Source of the DNA: Rickettsiales bacterium
Lineage (GTDB): Bacteria > Pseudomonadota > Alphaproteobacteria > Rickettsiales > UBA6187
Assembly (NCBI GenBank): GCA_040507985.1
Contig: JBEVNR010000002.1
Location: forward strand, 71,538-135,537
Direction of reading: 5' to 3'
DNA: 64,000 nt
Shown: positions 4,011 to 27,788 of the stretch, in pieces
How positions within the stretch are numbered: the stretch's first letter is position 1
Layout of the letters: each line of letters opens with the position of its first letter
Position numbers and translations under genes: made by a program
The notes under the pieces: generated by a model
Database searches by the model: none
What the model saw: the letters and a program-made list of their open reading frames with translations, nothing else
What the model was told of the DNA's origin: nothing

Positions 4011-6389
4011 CTACGCCCGCAGCGCGGCGCCGCATTTTTCCGCCGCCGCCGTCACGGCGGACGATATGCGTTGCAGATCGTCGTCGGTCAGCACTTTATG
4101 TTGCGGACGGATTCTTACCGCCACCGCCACAGATTTTTTCCCCTCGCCTACGTTTTCGCCGCGATACACGTCGAAGACGCGCACGCTTTCGACGTTTTCC
4201 TTGTCCGCCTTGCCGATGCGGCGCGTGAGCTCCCCGATCTCAATTTTTTCGTCCATAACGAAGCAAAAATCGCGATCCGACGCCTGATAGGGCGACAAAT
4301 ACAAGGGCGGGCGCGCCGCCTTTCCTTTTTTTTGCTGAACGGGAAGCGCGTCGATATATATTTCGCACGCCGCGACGCGCTCCTTCACGCCTTCGCCGGC
4401 GCATAGGCGGGGATGCATCTCCCCGAATACGCCCAAAAGCGTTTTGCCTAAATACACGCTCGCACTTCTGCCCGGCCACAAATAAGACGGCGCGGAAGAA
4501 TCGATGCGGCATGATTCTTCCTTTACGCCACATTCCGACAAAACGGAAAAGAAATCGCGCTTGGCGTCGAACGTGGTGCATTCCGGACGGACAAGCTCTC
4601 CGGGCGCGGCCTCCCGCCTGCCCACGCGGATCGACGCTGCCGCCTTACGTTGGTCGGCCGGCGACGTACCGAAAAAAATCGTCCCGGTTTCGCACAATCC
4701 GAAATCCGAAAGGCGACGTCCGGCGTTTTCCGCAACGGTACGCAGCAAGTTCGGCAATAAAGACGGACGCATATGCCGCCATTCCTGCGAAATCGGGTTG
4801 CCGATCGTCACCATGTTGCTAAAACCGAACGCCTCTTTCTGCGCGTCCGAGATAAACGACCAGCACAACGCCTCGCGCAATCCGCGTCCCAATAACGCGA
4901 ACGTCGCCTTGGCCGTCGCGGCGGCAAGCGGGTGCGGCGCCGGCGCCGTTGAGACGGGAGGAAGCAGCGTTTCGGGTATGGCGTCGTACCCCACGATACG
5001 CGCAACTTCCTCGACCAAATCGGCTTCGCACGTCACGTCGTGGCGCCAGCTTGGGGGAACATACCCCGCCGCGTCGCTTGCGGGAAAAAAACCCAGCTTG
5101 CGCAAGATTGCGTCCGCGTCGACGTCGGATATGTCCATACCCGTCAGGCGCTTCACCGCCCCGGCGCGGAACGGCGCGGCCTCCCGGCGCAACGTATTGC
5201 CGCGCACGGCTTTGATCGGACGAGAGAGGTGGCCTCCGCAATGTGCAGCGATTCTGCCGGCAAGAATGCGAAGGGCGGTTTCGGCGAAATCGGCGTCGAC
5301 GCCGCGCTCGAAGCGCTTGCGCGATTCCGTATGCATATTCAGAAGGCGCCCCGTCTTGGCCACGCTTGGCGCGTCGAACAGCGCGATTTCCACGAAAACA
5401 TTGCGCGTGGTCGGCATGCAGCCGCTTGCCGCTCCGCCGATAATTCCCCCGACGGCGTGCACGCCTTTGGAGTCCGCGACGACGGTCGCGCATGCAGGAA
5501 GACGGTAGACGGCGCCGTCCAAGGCGGTAAACGATTCCTCCGGCACGGCGAGACGAACGCAGAGATCGCCTTGTAACGTATCGGCGTCGAAGACGTGCGC
5601 CGGGCGTCCGAATTCGTGCAACAGGTAATTCGTGAGATCGACCGCCGGCGAAATGCTGCGTTGCCCTATCGCCCGCAATCGCCGCGCCATGGAGAAGGGA
5701 AGCGCGCCGGAGTTATCGACGTTTTTTACATAGCATCCGTAGAAGGCGCCACACGCCGAATCCGGCGCAATCGAGACGGCAATCGGCGCATCGAAATGTC
5801 CTTTTATCTCCGTGGCGGAAACGGGTTTCAGCGTGCCCAATCCCGCCGCCGCGAGGTCGCGCGCAATGCCGTAAACGCCGAAACAATCGCCCCTGTTGGG
5901 GGTCAGCCCGATTTCAACCACGACGTCGCTTAGTCCGAGCGCGTCGGCCAAAGGCGATCCGACGACGGCTGTTGCCGGCAATTCGATAATGCCCTCGCCG
6001 TCTTCTCCCAGTCCGAGTTCCGCGCCGGAGCACAGCATGCCGCAGCTTTCCTCGCCGCGAATTTTTGAGCGTTTAATCGTTATGCCGCTGGCCGGCACCG
6101 TCACGCCCACCGGCGCCAAGGCGACCTTTATGCCGGCGCGGGCGTTGGGCGCGCCGCAGACGACGTCTAATATTTCGCTTCCGTTATCGACCTTGCACAC
6201 GCGCAGCCGGTCGGCTTGCGGGTGCGGCTTGGCGTCGACGATCCCGGCAACGACGAAGCCTTGCAGCAAAGCGCCCGGCGACGCGACCGACTCCACCTCC
6301 AGCCCTATGGCGGTGAGCTTTTCGATAAGCGCCTCGTCGGAAGCGTCGCCCTCTAAAAATTCACGCAGCCATTCTAGGGTAAATTTCAT
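4011..6389 (-). CDS. pheT: Phenylalanine--tRNA ligase beta subunit
   Basis: The 792-aa product begins MKFTLEWLREFL.... It has a tRNA-binding domain (HPQADRLRVCKVD), B3/4 and B5 regions, and a C-terminal anticodon-binding-like domain (SVAVAVRIRPQHKVLTDDDL). Confidence 0.95.
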   Translation of the reverse strand: MKFTLEWLREFLEGDASDEALIEKLTAIGLEVESVASPGALLQGFVVAGIVDAKPHPQADRLRVCKVDNGSEILDVVCGAPNARAGIKVALAPVGVTVPASGITIKRSKIRGEESCGMLCSGAELGLGEDGEGIIELPATAVVGSPLADALGLSDVVVEIGLTPNRGDCFGVYGIARDLAAAGLGTLKPVSATEIKGHFDAPIAVSIAPDSACGAFYGCYVKNVDNSGALPFSMARRLRAIGQRSISPAVDLTNYLLHEFGRPAHVFDADTLQGDLCVRLAVPEESFTALDGAVYRLPACATVVADSKGVHAVGGIIGGAASGCMPTTRNVFVEIALFDAPSVAKTGRLLNMHTESRKRFERGVDADFAETALRILAGRIAAHCGGHLSRPIKAVRGNTLRREAAPFRAGAVKRLTGMDISDVDADAILRKLGFFPASDAAGYVPPSWRHDVTCEADLVEEVARIVGYDAIPETLLPPVSTAPAPHPLAAATAKATFALLGRGLREALCWSFISDAQKEAFGFSNMVTIGNPISQEWRHMRPSLLPNLLRTVAENAGRRLSDFGLCETGTIFFGTSPADQRKAAASIRVGRREAAPGELVRPECTTFDAKRDFFSVLSECGVKEESCRIDSSAPSYLWPGRSASVYLGKTLLGVFGEMHPRLCAGEGVKERVAACEIYIDALPVQQKKGKAARPPLYLSPYQASDRDFCFVMDEKIEIGELTRRIGKADKENVESVRVFDVYRGENVGEGKKSVAVAVRIRPQHKVLTDDDLQRISSAVTAAAEKCGAALRA

Positions 6390-23939: not shown

Positions 23940-24032
23940 TATCAAGCCGCCTCGGACGTTTTCCCGTCGAACCCGGTCAGATCGGAGACGAAGCAGCCGT
24001 AAGGCGAAGGAGACGGGTCGGGGCGGCCCAAC
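23940..24032 (+). ncRNA. ffs: Signal recognition particle RNA (small bacterial SRP / 4.5S)
   Basis: The conserved domain IV core CCGGUCAGAUCGGAGACGAAGCAGCC is present (compare the consensus GGUCAGGUCCGGAAGGAAGCAGCC). The closing helix pairs GCCGCCUCGGAC with GUCGGGGCGGC (23946-24027). It lies immediately upstream of dnaX, the usual alphaproteobacterial position. The ends are approximate. Confidence 0.75.
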
Positions 24033-24051
24033 CAATTAACGTACGCTCGCC

Positions 24052-25260
24052 ATGTCTTCCGCTTCGCCCTCTTACGTCGTGTTAGCGACCAAATATCGTC
24101 CCGGGCGCTTTGAGGATTTGCGCGGACAAGACGTGTTGGTGCGCACCTTGCAAAATGCGATACGGCTTGACCGCATCGCTAACGCCTTTATCATGACGGG
24201 CATACGCGGCGTGGGAAAGACCACCACCGCCCGCATCATCGCCAAGTCGCTAAATTGCGTCGGCGGGGAACATTCGGATAAACCGGCCGTTTCACCGTGC
24301 GGCGCGTGCGAGCAATGCGTCGCGGTGCGCGACGGGCGCCACCCCGACGTGCTCGAAATGGACGCCGCCAGCCATACGGGCGTGGACGACGTGCGCGAAA
24401 TTATCGACATGGCCCGTTATGCTCCATCGATGGGGCGCTATAAAATATTTATCGTCGATGAAGTGCACATGCTTTCACGCAGCGCCTTCAACGCGCTGCT
24501 AAAAACGCTGGAGGAACCGCCGGCGCGCGTGAAGTTTATTTTCGCCACGACGGAAATTCGCAAGGTGCCGGCCACGATTCTTTCCCGCTGCCAGCGTTTT
24601 GACTTAAAGCGCGTCGAGACGGAATCGCTCGCCCGTCATTTAGCGGCGGTCTGCGAGACGGAAGAAAGGCGCATTGAGCCTTCCGCCCTGGCGCTCATCG
24701 CCCGCGCGGCGGAGGGATCGGTGCGCGATTCCTTGTCGCTGCTCGATCAAATTCTCGCCATGCAGGAAGGCGTTCCCACGGCGGAAGACGTACGCCGCAT
24801 GTTGGGCATGGCCGAAAGCGGACGCGTCGTCGCCCTGTTCTCCGCATTATGCGAAGGCGACGTCAGAACGACACTCGCTCTCGTGCGCCGGGCCGTGTCG
24901 GACGGGCAAGATCCAATGCAAATCGTGAAAGAAGCGCAGCAAGCCTGCCATCACGCCGGATTGTTCACCGTGGCCGGAAAAGACGCCGAGACGGACACGT
25001 TTTACGACGAGGTCTCGCGCGGCGCGTTGGAAGAGGCGTCGAAAAAATGCGGCGCCGCCTTCCTTATGCGCATGTGGAGCCTGCTTATTAAATGCGCGGA
25101 AGAATTTTCTTATAGCTACAACGCCCAGGCGACGCTGGAAATGGGGATGGTGCGTTTATGTTATGCCTCGTCGCTGCCTACGCCCGAGGCCGCCTTGCGC
25201 GCGCTGGCGAAACACGAGCGCGCCTTGCCCCCTGCCGCGCCGGATAAAAAAAAAACCTGA
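24052..25260 (+). CDS. dnaX: DNA polymerase III subunit gamma/tau, zero-frame (gamma-length) product
   Basis: The 402-aa product contains GIRGVGKTTTARI (Walker A), a Zn module CGACEQC, IVDEVHML and SRCQRF. It ends ...PAAPDKKKT* immediately after an A10 run. Confidence 0.9.
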   Translation: MSSASPSYVVLATKYRPGRFEDLRGQDVLVRTLQNAIRLDRIANAFIMTGIRGVGKTTTARIIAKSLNCVGGEHSDKPAVSPCGACEQCVAVRDGRHPDVLEMDAASHTGVDDVREIIDMARYAPSMGRYKIFIVDEVHMLSRSAFNALLKTLEEPPARVKFIFATTEIRKVPATILSRCQRFDLKRVETESLARHLAAVCETEERRIEPSALALIARAAEGSVRDSLSLLDQILAMQEGVPTAEDVRRMLGMAESGRVVALFSALCEGDVRTTLALVRRAVSDGQDPMQIVKEAQQACHHAGLFTVAGKDAETDTFYDEVSRGALEEASKKCGAAFLMRMWSLLIKCAEEFSYSYNAQATLEMGMVRLCYASSLPTPEAALRALAKHERALPPAAPDKKKT

Positions 25261-25706
25261 TTGTCCCTAAGGAAAATTCCCTAAACGGCATGGATAAAGC
25301 TCTTGCCGCCTTAGAGGAGGAAGGCGACGTCACGGATTATGCGTCCTTTCTGGAATATTTGCTGAAAAACAAGGAGCTCACGCTATACCGACTGCTGAGC
25401 GCCCACGCAGAATGCGCGGAGTGGAGCGCCGAGAAAATCGTCCTTCGCGGCGATTCCGACATATTGGCGCCGCGTCTTGGTGAGTTAAGGAGCCATTTAT
25501 CCCATGCCGGCCTGTCCTCGCTTCCGGAAATTGCCATTGAAAGTGTCGTAAAGCCGCCTTCATACGCCGCGATGTCGACGTCTAAAGCGCAGCATTCGCC
25601 CAAAGGGAAAAAAACGGAGGCGCCTACGCACCCGGACGTCGCCTACGTGAAAAAATTCTTTCCTGAGGCGATATTAATCGCTTTAGACGAGGGCGAAACG
25701 GCATAA
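25248..25706 (+). CDS. dnaX: Tau-specific C-terminal domain of DnaX, encoded in the -1 frame relative to dnaX
   Basis: This frame is open from inside the A10 tract (the TAA at 25245-47 is the last stop). The first ATG is at 25290. The product reads ...YASFLEYLLKNKELTLYRLLSAHAECAEWSAEKIVLRGDSD..LAPRLGELRSHL...HPDVAYVKKFFPEAILIAL. This follows the pattern of the alphaproteobacterial DnaX C-terminal domain (F..V..L.....L...L...v..v.f..g.i.....L..rL...L and then P.V....FPgAeIv). Confidence 0.6.
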   Translation, partial: KKNLIVPKENSLNGMDKALAALEEEGDVTDYASFLEYLLKNKELTLYRLLSAHAECAEWSAEKIVLRGDSDILAPRLGELRSHLSHAGLSSLPEIAIESVVKPPSYAAMSTSKAQHSPKGKKTEAPTHPDVAYVKKFFPEAILIALDEGETA

Positions 25707-25743: not shown

Positions 25744-26832
25744 TTAATCAAATCGTATCTGCATACATAACCTAAGATATTGCGTGCCGTCATCACCCGT
25801 AAATAAGGTTCCGAAGTCATGCCTACCCGTACTCGGTGTATCGAAGCACGTGCGGGAAAACAAATAATCTTCAAAGGCATTCCAATTATAGATATGGTAA
25901 CAAACGATGTTGCCGCTCTCGTTAACGATCACATAACCGCCGTTAGCGTCGTAAATGCCGCACCATATTTTTCTTGCCGTCATTCCCAACGCAACGGATA
26001 ATAAAAAACGCTTTATTTTACTTTCATAGAAGGGCTGCCCACAGGATAGATCGTAACCGCAAGGATTCTTATTAACCGTTAGCCCGGTAAGCTCCGTTAT
26101 TTTTGTGCCGAGACCCGAGTAATAACCCGCCATAAGATCGGCAAGAATAAGATCTAGTTGCGAATCGCAGAATGCGATATTTCTGCGAAATTGATCGTCT
26201 TCCACTTTTACATAATGAAGAGTGCAACCGTGCGCCGCTAATTCCGCCAATAACGATTTCGTCTTTTTTCCTTGAAAAACTTCGTCGGAAAGTTTTTCCG
26301 CGCTTTCCGCTTCGTATAAAAAACACGTACTATGCTTAGCGGCGTTAAATAACGTCGATTTTCCGCCAAGTCGCGATTTAATGCTAAATCCTAATTCTTG
26401 CCGGCGTTGCGTAACGGGATCGTGAACCGCAACCTTAACGTCTTGCTTATTTTGCGAACCGGATTTTAATAGCGGGTTGCCTATCTTTTCCACGAAATGG
26501 GCAATTTCAGGAATTTCGAAGCTTGCCTCGCCTTTGCTCGCCCGCACTTTTTCAAAAAGCAGATCGGCCGCGGCCACATATTCCGCCGCATTGACTTCCG
26601 AAACGATTCGGGCCGTAGTTACTGCCTTAATAACGACGGTATCGCCTTCGTTGCAACGTCTGTATTCCGCATCTATTCGTTCTTGCCCTACGGTTCTTCT
26701 AACCGCATATACGGGATAAAAGAAATCTTCGCGGGGATTTAAATGGGCGTCGGCCGCATGAAGCTTGCCCGTTCCTAAAAGCCTAAGGAAAACGTATAAT
26801 TCGCTCCACTCGCCTTTATTCATTCCGGTCAT
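25744..26832 (-). CDS. Type II restriction endonuclease, HpaII-like
   Basis: The 362-aa product has the N-terminus NKGEWSELYVFLRLLGTGKLHAAD, which is what I recall as the hallmark of the HpaII endonuclease family. It has a 4-nt overlap with the upstream C5-methyltransferase gene and lies in a lower-GC block. The family assignment is from memory and was not searched. Confidence 0.65.
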   Translation of the reverse strand: MTGMNKGEWSELYVFLRLLGTGKLHAADAHLNPREDFFYPVYAVRRTVGQERIDAEYRRCNEGDTVVIKAVTTARIVSEVNAAEYVAAADLLFEKVRASKGEASFEIPEIAHFVEKIGNPLLKSGSQNKQDVKVAVHDPVTQRRQELGFSIKSRLGGKSTLFNAAKHSTCFLYEAESAEKLSDEVFQGKKTKSLLAELAAHGCTLHYVKVEDDQFRRNIAFCDSQLDLILADLMAGYYSGLGTKITELTGLTVNKNPCGYDLSCGQPFYESKIKRFLLSVALGMTARKIWCGIYDANGGYVIVNESGNIVCYHIYNWNAFEDYLFSRTCFDTPSTGRHDFGTLFTGDDGTQYLRLCMQIRFD

Positions 26833-27788
26833 TCGTAACAGGCGGCTTGCGCCGCGTTTTGCGCTTTATCGGTCCAAACGGGCTTAGCCGCTTGCCGCCT
26901 TAACGTTTGCAAGCGTTCGATAATCGTTTCGCCAACGGCTTGTACCGCGTGTACGGCGACGCTATTGCCTAGTTGTTTCATAGCTTGCGTTTTCGACACC
27001 GGAAACACGAAATCGTCGGGAAAACCCATCATGCGCCGGCCTTCCTTCGGCCCCATGCGTCGTTCTTGGCCGCCCACTATGTAGCAATCCCAATTTCTAC
27101 GATCGCCCACGCCCGAACTGCGTCCGCCGACGCGCAGCGTATAGCCGATCTCCTTTTCGCACACATCGCCCCATACTTGATTCATCGTAATATTAAGGGG
27201 TAGCTTACGCGGAAACTTAAACTCGGCGCCATAATTGTCTTCCTTACGGAATCCCACGATAAACAAGCGCGGCCGATGTTGCGGCAATCCATAGTCCGAC
27301 GCTTTTACGACTTGCCAATATATATTATATCCCAGTCGCTCGCTAAGAATGGCACGTATGGTCTCGAATGTTTTGCCGCCGTCGTGATTCAGTAGATGGC
27401 GGACGTTCTCCAAAAATATTACCGACGGGCGTTTGGCCTCGATAATTTCGGCTATAATAAAAAACATATTACCGCGCTTGTCCTTCTCCTCTGCGAATCC
27501 TCTTTTGAATCCGGCTTGGCTAAAAGGCTGGCAAGGAAAGCCGGCGCACAATATGTCGAAATTGGGAATTTCCTCGGAAGGAAACGTAATGGCGGTTATG
27601 TCGGGGTTGAATAAGCCATTTTCAAAAAGTTGCGGCGAAAGCCTGCGAAAATTCTCTTCGTAGGTTAGGCGGGCGAACGGATCAATTTCCGACGCAAAGA
27701 CGCATTTGGCACCCAAATTATGCCAAGCCAAATGAAAACCGCCGATGCCTGCAAAAAGGTCTATAAATGTCAGTGCATTACTTTTCAT
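26829..27788 (-). CDS. DNA (cytosine-5)-methyltransferase
   Basis: The 319-aa product has motif I FIDLFAGIGGF, motif IV GFPCQPFS, motif VI ENV, motif VIII QHRPR and motif X GNSVAV. Confidence 0.9.
   Translation of the reverse strand: MKSNALTFIDLFAGIGGFHLAWHNLGAKCVFASEIDPFARLTYEENFRRLSPQLFENGLFNPDITAITFPSEEIPNFDILCAGFPCQPFSQAGFKRGFAEEKDKRGNMFFIIAEIIEAKRPSVIFLENVRHLLNHDGGKTFETIRAILSERLGYNIYWQVVKASDYGLPQHRPRLFIVGFRKEDNYGAEFKFPRKLPLNITMNQVWGDVCEKEIGYTLRVGGRSSGVGDRRNWDCYIVGGQERRMGPKEGRRMMGFPDDFVFPVSKTQAMKQLGNSVAVHAVQAVGETIIERLQTLRRQAAKPVWTDKAQNAAQAACYE

Follow-up and report, generated by a model that had tools for sequence, protein, structure and literature searches.

The dnaX gene is the textbook case of one gene supplying two replisome subunits by non-standard decoding, and tau, its long product, ties the polymerase to the clamp loader. 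Here, we analyze the dnaX gene carried on a 64,000-nucleotide stretch of a Rickettsiales bacterium assembly (GenBank GCA_040507985.1, contig JBEVNR010000002.1, positions 71,538 to 135,537, forward strand), hereafter the window, in which the coding sequence is divided between two reading frames at a run of ten A's. We consider it probable that this is a genuine two-frame dnaX, in which programmed recoding at an A9/A10 run conserved among relatives takes place by transcriptional slippage; the broader claim, that programmed -1 recoding of one kind or another at the run produces tau, we regard as highly probable.

In Escherichia coli, the zero frame of dnaX encodes tau and gamma results from a shift at an A_AAA_AAG heptamer, which is flanked by a 5' Shine-Dalgarno-like element and a 3' stem-loop. 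The window gene shares with it the position of the site at the end of domain III, a slippery tract of lysine codons and an N-terminus common to both products, whereas the frame roles are reversed and the cassette has no such stimulators. In Thermus thermophilus, transcriptional slippage on a run of nine A's was shown experimentally (Larsen et al. 2000, as described in PMC1088944 and PMC5009743), and mRNAs with varying numbers of A's give both tau and gamma. Common to Thermus and the window are a homopolymer of at least nine A's at the gamma/tau boundary and stop codons near the run in two of the three frames. The templated frame, however, is that of tau in Thermus and that of gamma in the window, where a change of +1, -2 or +4 A's would be needed for tau, and the window gene is therefore filed under a reversed type.

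Reversed dnaX genes, in which tau needs recoding, were described by Antonov et al. in 2013 (NAR 41:6514, PMC3711429) for Chlorobi, Bacteroidetes and Verrucomicrobia. That paper reports 17 dnaX genes from 12 genera, organized as two open reading frames (ORFs) with a -1 offset at the DNA level; nine of these genes have an A10 run and the others A9, A8 or A7, and transcriptional realignment is argued from an alignment with the A9-GCCTGA site of Thermus. Genera named in its Supplementary Figure S3 include Chlorobium, Prosthecochloris, Pelodictyon, Flavobacterium, Cytophaga, Capnocytophaga and Coraliomargarita, and the motifs given there (PMC3711429) include AAAAAAAAAAGCCCCTGA, beside GAGAAAAAAAAAGCCTGA of Thermus. 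The window has the same two adjacent ORFs with the DnaX domains split between them, a tau-specific ORF2 in the -1 frame, a templated gamma, a need for recoding to reach tau, and a poly-A run at the junction (A10, as in most of theirs) with the gamma stop within a few bases, which in the published genes often takes the form ...GCC(CC)TGA; moreover, the position and direction of the frameshift are conserved in the window and in all four relatives described below. It differs from the Antonov genes in its alphaproteobacterial host and in a tau-specific domain of the DUF3646/PF12362 type. We found no alphaproteobacterial example of a reversed dnaX in the literature, including the available text of Antonov et al. 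and the available part of the species listing in its Supplementary Figure S3. Given this alphaproteobacterial type of tau domain, the reversed A-run cassette presumably arose independently within Alphaproteobacteria, in this clade, and converged on the A9-10/NCC-TGA solution of Thermus and Chlorobi.

Two further systems bear on the comparison. Caulobacter crescentus obtains gamma by ClpXP processing of tau (cited in PMC5009743). Its alphaproteobacterial DnaX has the same domain set, and long and short forms are both needed; there, one contiguous ORF is followed by proteolysis, whereas the two forms in the window would arise at the decoding level. The dnaX gene of Blochmannia has a frameshift within a poly(A) tract, for which rescue by slippage is presumed (PMC3017870), with full-length tau depending on that slippage as it would here. 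The genome of Blochmannia is AT-rich and eroding, and its dnaX frameshift, located beyond the point where gamma and tau diverge, is regarded as tolerated damage, whereas the one in the window falls exactly at the gamma/tau boundary, has designed-looking stops, is conserved and sits in a free-living-type genome of 55% GC.

Anatomy of the divided gene

An initial annotation, made from the sequence of the window alone, had described dnaX as split at the A10 tract with a gamma-length product in the zero frame, which reads CCG GAT AAA AAA AAA ACC TGA across the junction. The sequence and the clamp-loader domains found in ORF1 confirm this (Table 1): ORF1 matches PF13177 (6e-39), PF22608 (2e-15) and PF12169 (1e-29), passes the curated models TIGR02397 dnaX_nterm (417 bits, cut-off 250) and NF004046 (421 bits, cut-off 400), and scores 590 bits against NF006585. 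In the same annotation, a TAA at the edge of the run was the final stop codon of the -1 frame, which was open thereafter. This also proved correct, as ORF2 runs for 152 sense codons up to a TAA at 25704-25706. Since the -1-frame stop overlaps the start of the run, the frame change must occur within the run itself.

Table 1. Features of the dnaX locus and its neighbors in the window, followed by the junctions of the five clade members
Feature	Position	Strand	Details
Bacterial small SRP RNA (ffs)	23941..24035	+	RF00169, 40.7 bits, E=2.9e-5; immediately upstream of dnaX
dnaX ORF1, zero frame	24052..25260	+	402-aa gamma-length DnaX; clamp-loader ATPase domains I-III; C-terminus ...PDKKKT*
Last stop of the -1 frame, TAA	25245..25247	+	Overlaps the first two A's of the run
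A10 run, putative slippage site	25246..25255	+	Zero-frame AAA AAA AAA plus the A of ACC; A_AAA_AAA in phase
dnaX ORF2, -1 frame	25248..25706	+	Tau-specific: short linker (KKNLIVPKENSLNG) and DUF3646-type DnaX C-terminal domain
Zero-frame stop TGA	25258..25260	+	Ends gamma; one codon beyond the run
+1-frame stop TAA	25268..25270	+	Closes the third frame soon after the run
In-frame ATG within ORF2	25290..25292	+	Gene-caller start of a 138-aa stand-alone ORF; 29 nt past the TGA
Restriction enzyme, HpaII-type R-M	25744-26832	-	PF09561, E=3e-94
C5-cytosine methyltransferase, HpaII-type R-M	26829-27788	-	PF00145, E=1e-74
Window junction, zero frame			GAT AAA AAA AAA ACC TGA
L086 junction, zero frame			GAT AAA AAA AAA GCC TGA
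L001 junction, zero frame			GAT AAA AAA AAA GCC CTG ACG GCG CCT TAA
L002 junction, zero frame			CTA AAA AAA AAA GCC TGA
L085 junction, zero frame			CTT AAA AAA AAA ATC TGA
aa, amino acids; SRP, signal recognition particle; R-M, restriction-modification; nt, nucleotides.

The assignment of the roughly 150 residues of the -1 frame to the tau-specific domain of alphaproteobacterial DnaX, likewise made in the initial annotation, draws on two kinds of comparison. Against PF12362/DUF3646, ORF2 gives a weak match (E=0.025, 15.3 bits, cut-off 30.2) that nevertheless covers positions 3-112 of the 114 in the model; precomputed PF12362 matches on orthologous ORF2s are unmarked in L001 and L085 and marked weak in L002. 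The alignment with the C-termini of full-length DnaX is, at the level of sequence, convincing. A conceptual 551-aa fusion of ORF1 and ORF2 can be aligned over its entire length with nine full-length DnaX proteins of Alphaproteobacteria (544-606 aa), the two ORFs meet in a variable low-complexity linker that directly follows the conserved LPTPE closing domain III, and ORF2 keeps the columns that are invariant in the alignment, namely two Leu, HP and FP.A. Moreover, a profile of the stand-alone C-terminal ORFs, run against 1.84 billion representative proteins, recovers the C-termini of DnaX proteins of 500-730 aa.

Simulated transcripts of different run lengths fall into three groups. A10 gives the 402-aa protein ending ...PDKKKT*; A9 and A12 give gamma-like proteins of 405 and 406 aa ending ...KKKPDCP*; and A11, A8 or A14 give fusions of ORF1 and ORF2 of 551, 550 and 552 aa, respectively. 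The junction peptide of an A11 transcript or of a -1 slip is PDKKKNLIVPK, with three K. The four-K peptide PDKKKKNLIVPK that had been put forward for detecting tau thus has one K too many and corresponds to the +4 (A14) product.

A junction conserved in five loci

Within 5.8 billion proteins, ORF1 has only two close relatives, both gamma-length (64% and 60% identity), and the remaining matches, at 55% identity or less, are all full length. The contigs of both close relatives carry a separately called DUF3646 ORF directly downstream, and an exhaustive profile search with the C-terminal ORFs found two further members, L085 and L086, with the same contig layout. When the C-terminal alignment was used in a word-based protein search, nothing beyond the three known sequences was recovered, and scans of JGI metagenomes gave no matches to clade-specific peptide patterns or to a DNA pattern in which LPTP[ED]A is connected with an A9 run. 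Besides the window, the members are L001 (JGI 3300066487), L002 (ENA ERZ23499148), L085 (Logan SRR6713915) and L086 (ENA ERZ937833). The four relatives come from four other metagenomes, and the five loci thus from five data sets.

Comparing the site among related genomes had been suggested at the outset as a check on the split, and all five loci keep an A9 or A10 run, the -1 offset and an open C-terminal ORF. At the junctions (Table 1), the in-phase zero-frame AAA AAA AAA is invariant in every member, as is an in-phase A_AAA_AAA; NNC TGA follows the run directly in four members, and the L001 stop lies five codons later. The C-terminal ORF always occupies the -1 frame, with no stop between the run and the domain. 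Upstream, the -1-frame stop GA[TAA] is common to the window, L001 and L086, with an equivalent CT[TAA] at 353-355 in L085. The +1 frame is closed in every member, by differing stop codons, within two to five codons of the run (KKKPDCP*, KKKPE*, KKKP*, KKKPDGG* and KKKSE*). Members with A9 differ from those with A10 by substitution (GCC versus ACC or ATC, or CTA versus GAT) rather than by an insertion or deletion, so the phase is preserved. This constancy stands out against its surroundings: neither the 15 residues that precede the run nor the linker that follows it can otherwise be aligned among the five members. The C-terminal parts are 24-43% identical, and ORF2 is open with conserved residues over 137-153 codons in every member. 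Codon choice is also skewed, since all 15 lysine codons of the runs are AAA as against about 63% of lysine codons elsewhere in these genes, with a probability of ~1e-3 if codons are independent. In L086 and L002, the run is followed by GCCTGA as in Thermus, and the 15-mer AAAAAAAAAGCCTGA is shared among the three.

Outside the clade, dnaX looks different. In at least 80 alphaproteobacterial loci from GTDB species representatives, the gene is contiguous and encodes 477-620 aa, apart from three copies truncated at the end of their contig (L028, L035 and L042), and no A-run of eight or more was found in these outgroup genes. Among the matches listed, the best GTDB-representative relative has 55% identity, and no close relative is among them. 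The comparison with the five loci supports the view, already held in the initial annotation, that decoding yields gamma by default and that tau requires a -1 shift or the addition of one A, the reverse of the E. coli and Thermus arrangements. Two points go beyond it, namely that this organization has already been published (PMC3711429) and that the third frame is closed near the run in every member.

Two further candidates, both short DUF3646 matches, were rejected. In P0126/L088, a normal contiguous dnaX runs off the end of its contig, and P0127/L089 (JGI 3300009444, Ga0114945_10052143) has no A-run but carries an in-frame TAG within domain III. This unrelated alphaproteobacterial dnaX is followed by ybaB; its TAG at 758-760 (...AWQLLL*GHGEV...) may be a site of readthrough, or may stem from a nonsense mutation or an error in sequencing, and is a phenomenon distinct from that of the window. 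A peculiarity was also seen in L086 (ENA ERZ937833 contig k127_117859), where a 255-bp piece of dnaX at 2004-2258, encoding ATPase-domain residues 97-181, is inverted, so that the N-terminal part was called as two genes. Local misassembly of the MEGAHIT contig is the probable cause, although the inversion may be real; the Logan contig of the same run, L087, ends short of the region.

Decoding of the junction and its alternatives

We propose the following decoding. Standard transcription and translation would yield gamma, which comprises domains I-III and would load clamps without binding the polymerase. RNA polymerase would realign on the homopolymer, so that some transcripts would carry one extra non-templated A (A11; also A8 and A14). 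In A11 transcripts, ORF1 and ORF2 would be fused, and ordinary translation would give a 551-aa tau (...PDKKKNLIVPKENSLNGMDK...) with the alphaproteobacterial C-terminal domain, while A9 and A12 transcripts would be read in the third frame and end four codons on as another gamma-like protein. The cassette would amount to the slippage system of T. thermophilus dnaX shifted by one phase, with gamma templated and tau as the slippage product.

The same recoding logic could instead be carried out by the ribosome, through -1 frameshifting on A_AAA_AAA (25248-25254) of a faithful A10 mRNA and continuation with AAC CTG. The heptamer is correctly phased and the -1 offset uniform in all five members, a review treats reversed dnaX genes as candidate ribosomal frameshifts (Atkins 2016, PMC5009743), and one Chlorobium case reportedly has E. 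coli-like stimulators (PMC5009743). We nonetheless consider ribosomal frameshifting rather unlikely. A pure -1 shift needs seven A's, whereas the conserved feature is a homopolymer of nine or ten and not merely a heptamer, and nine A's is the length at which slippage has been shown in Thermus dnaX; both observations favor transcriptional slippage. In many bacterial genomes, moreover, coding regions show evident selection against homopolymers once these reach nine (PMC1088944). The closure of both non-tau frames in all five members favors slippage as well, because it matters only where mRNAs of several lengths are translated, and a ribosomal mechanism would not need a closed +1 frame.

Transcriptional slippage is further favored by the lack of stimulators. 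Single-sequence folds gave no significant downstream hairpin (z = -1.2, 0.0 and +0.5), and the five-sequence alignment yielded a consensus of -1.3 kcal/mol with no convincing helix, so that the 3' structure is neither conserved nor thermodynamically unusual. No Shine-Dalgarno-like stimulator (GGAG/AGGA) occurs within the 15-20 nt preceding the run in the five members, and none of them has an A_AAA_AAG heptamer or any in-phase AAG. In E. coli, A_AAA_AAA is far less shift-prone than A_AAA_AAG (PMC5009743), and an essential protein would here require high ribosomal efficiency without any stimulator. From these features we infer that slippage takes place, that it does so in transcription rather than on the ribosome, and that it would yield gamma and tau in some ratio.

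Several points weigh against transcriptional slippage or temper the evidence for it. The in-phase A_AAA_AAA is a legitimate ribosomal -1 heptamer too, and the transcriptional level is in this respect deduced rather than observed. The linker between the run and ATG 25290 (14 codons) differs between the window and its closest relative L086 at five, seven and four sites in codon positions 1, 2 and 3, respectively, with no third-position bias, so that what speaks for its translation is openness in all five members together with patchy amino-acid similarity; the segment is too short and too diverged for its substitution pattern to be informative. The five loci form one clade, and their agreement reflects one origin maintained rather than five independent ones. 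Nor does the run argue by its existence: the A10 is the sole A/T run of ten or more in the window, but a first-order Markov model predicts a mean of 1.2 such runs in 64 kb, and AAA is the preferred lysine codon in the window (65%) despite a GC content at third codon positions (GC3) of 0.67. Its significance comes from where it lies and from its conservation among the relatives. Finally, a Shine-Dalgarno-like motif precedes 11 of the 44 long ORFs in the window against a background of 16%, and with such low use the missing motif before ATG 25290, which has no well-spaced Shine-Dalgarno sequence (AGGA lies 16 nt upstream), is therefore no argument against independent initiation there.

Independent initiation would make dnaX a truly split gene, encoding a gamma-length DnaX and a separate C-terminal protein of ~15 kDa begun at ATG 25290 or by termination-reinitiation, with the run as the relic of a Lys-rich linker. 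Gene callers annotate two genes in every member, the window ATG has counterparts in L001 and L086, all three standing just before a conserved ALAAL motif, and starts without a Shine-Dalgarno sequence appear normal in this genome. The start is not conserved, however: it lies three residues further in for L002, and L085 has no ATG or GTG in its first 70 codons and is called at a TTG. In addition, no stop interrupts the -1 frame between the run and the domain in any of the five members, and a split would not account for the invariant homopolymer, the constant -1 offset or the closure of the third frame. On established knowledge, a C-terminal domain detached in this way could not tether the polymerase to the clamp loader, and we know of no bacterium with a two-piece tau. 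The split gene, which the initial annotation had listed as an alternative, is thus weakened by the unconserved ATG and keeps a low probability; we consider it very unlikely, and equally so its corollary, a clade replisome of gamma-only clamp loaders with a free ~15-kDa polymerase-binding domain as a detached tau tail. Independent origin of the cassette and convergence on the Thermus/Chlorobi solution is much more likely than such a free C-terminal polypeptide.

A homopolymer miscall, in which the genome truly has A11 and an ordinary in-frame dnaX, was the other alternative raised at the outset, and it is now effectively excluded, with only a slight residual probability. Homopolymers are a known source of error and a single-base correction would suffice, but the out-of-frame state recurs in five loci from five data sets, and run lengths are the same in second, independent assemblies of two of them: L084 agrees with L002 (A10) and L087 with L086 (A9), L084 and L087 being Logan assemblies of the same sequencing runs. 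An artefact would also fit poorly with the substitutions that separate the A9 and A10 versions while keeping the phase, and with stops placed immediately after the run in both non-tau frames, which looks designed. Elsewhere in the window, A8, T8 and T9 runs are accommodated in frame by long ORFs, and there is therefore no general homopolymer problem.

Least tenable of all is a recent frameshift in a decaying gene, rescued by accident through polymerase infidelity as in insect endosymbionts, for which the Blochmannia frameshift in the tau-specific region offers a precedent (PMC3017870) but which is at odds with a state kept across relatives down to 60% (N-terminal) and 24% (C-terminal) identity, with an ORF2 open and conserved in all members, with the lack of any other window gene broken at a homopolymer, and with a genome that, at 55% GC, is not AT-rich.

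Genomic surroundings and implications

The small SRP RNA gene is the usual partner of dnaX, and the window has one in that place (Table 1). On the other side, a complete HpaII-type R-M pair (25744-27788, minus strand) directly follows dnaX in convergent orientation and occupies the usual alphaproteobacterial place of ybaB-recR, as seen in L088 and L089. GC content is 0.43-0.51 at the pair versus ~0.60 in dnaX, a drop which suggests that it is a horizontally acquired insertion. Most long ORFs of the window, dnaX included (24020-24051), lack a recognizable Shine-Dalgarno sequence, which is unusual for a proteobacterium if the first-ATG starts are right.

A/T homopolymers of eight or more number 19 in the 64 kb of the window at 55% GC (for example at 4326, 19634, 35529, 50308 and 57509), roughly double what a first-order Markov model predicts (mean 9.9, maximum 21, 200 simulations), and dnaX is the only gene seen broken by one. 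An A8 run at 38224-38231 at first suggested another split gene but does not mark one; it encodes an in-frame GKKN inside the first of two adjacent genes at 37669-38849 (plus strand), which adjoin by an ordinary 4-nt overlap (ATGA) and which, from sequence features, may be lptC/lptA-like.

The organization found here has been known from other phyla since 2013; its occurrence in Alphaproteobacteria appears to be new, and no new kind of mechanism is involved. The clade is sparsely sampled, with five known loci, and pipelines called a truncated dnaX and a "hypothetical protein" at every one of them. For annotation, it would be better to merge such genes and mark them as recoded than to class them as pseudogenes or split genes or to read them as evidence of a poor metagenome-assembled genome (MAG). 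As an apparently independent example of A9-10 followed by NCC TGA, the cassette may be useful for understanding how run length and phase set the gamma:tau ratio. For the biology of the group, it would mean that an uncultured alphaproteobacterial clade uses a decoding-level switch in which the essential long subunit is the recoded product, in contrast to Caulobacter, the one studied member of the class, which makes gamma by proteolysis.

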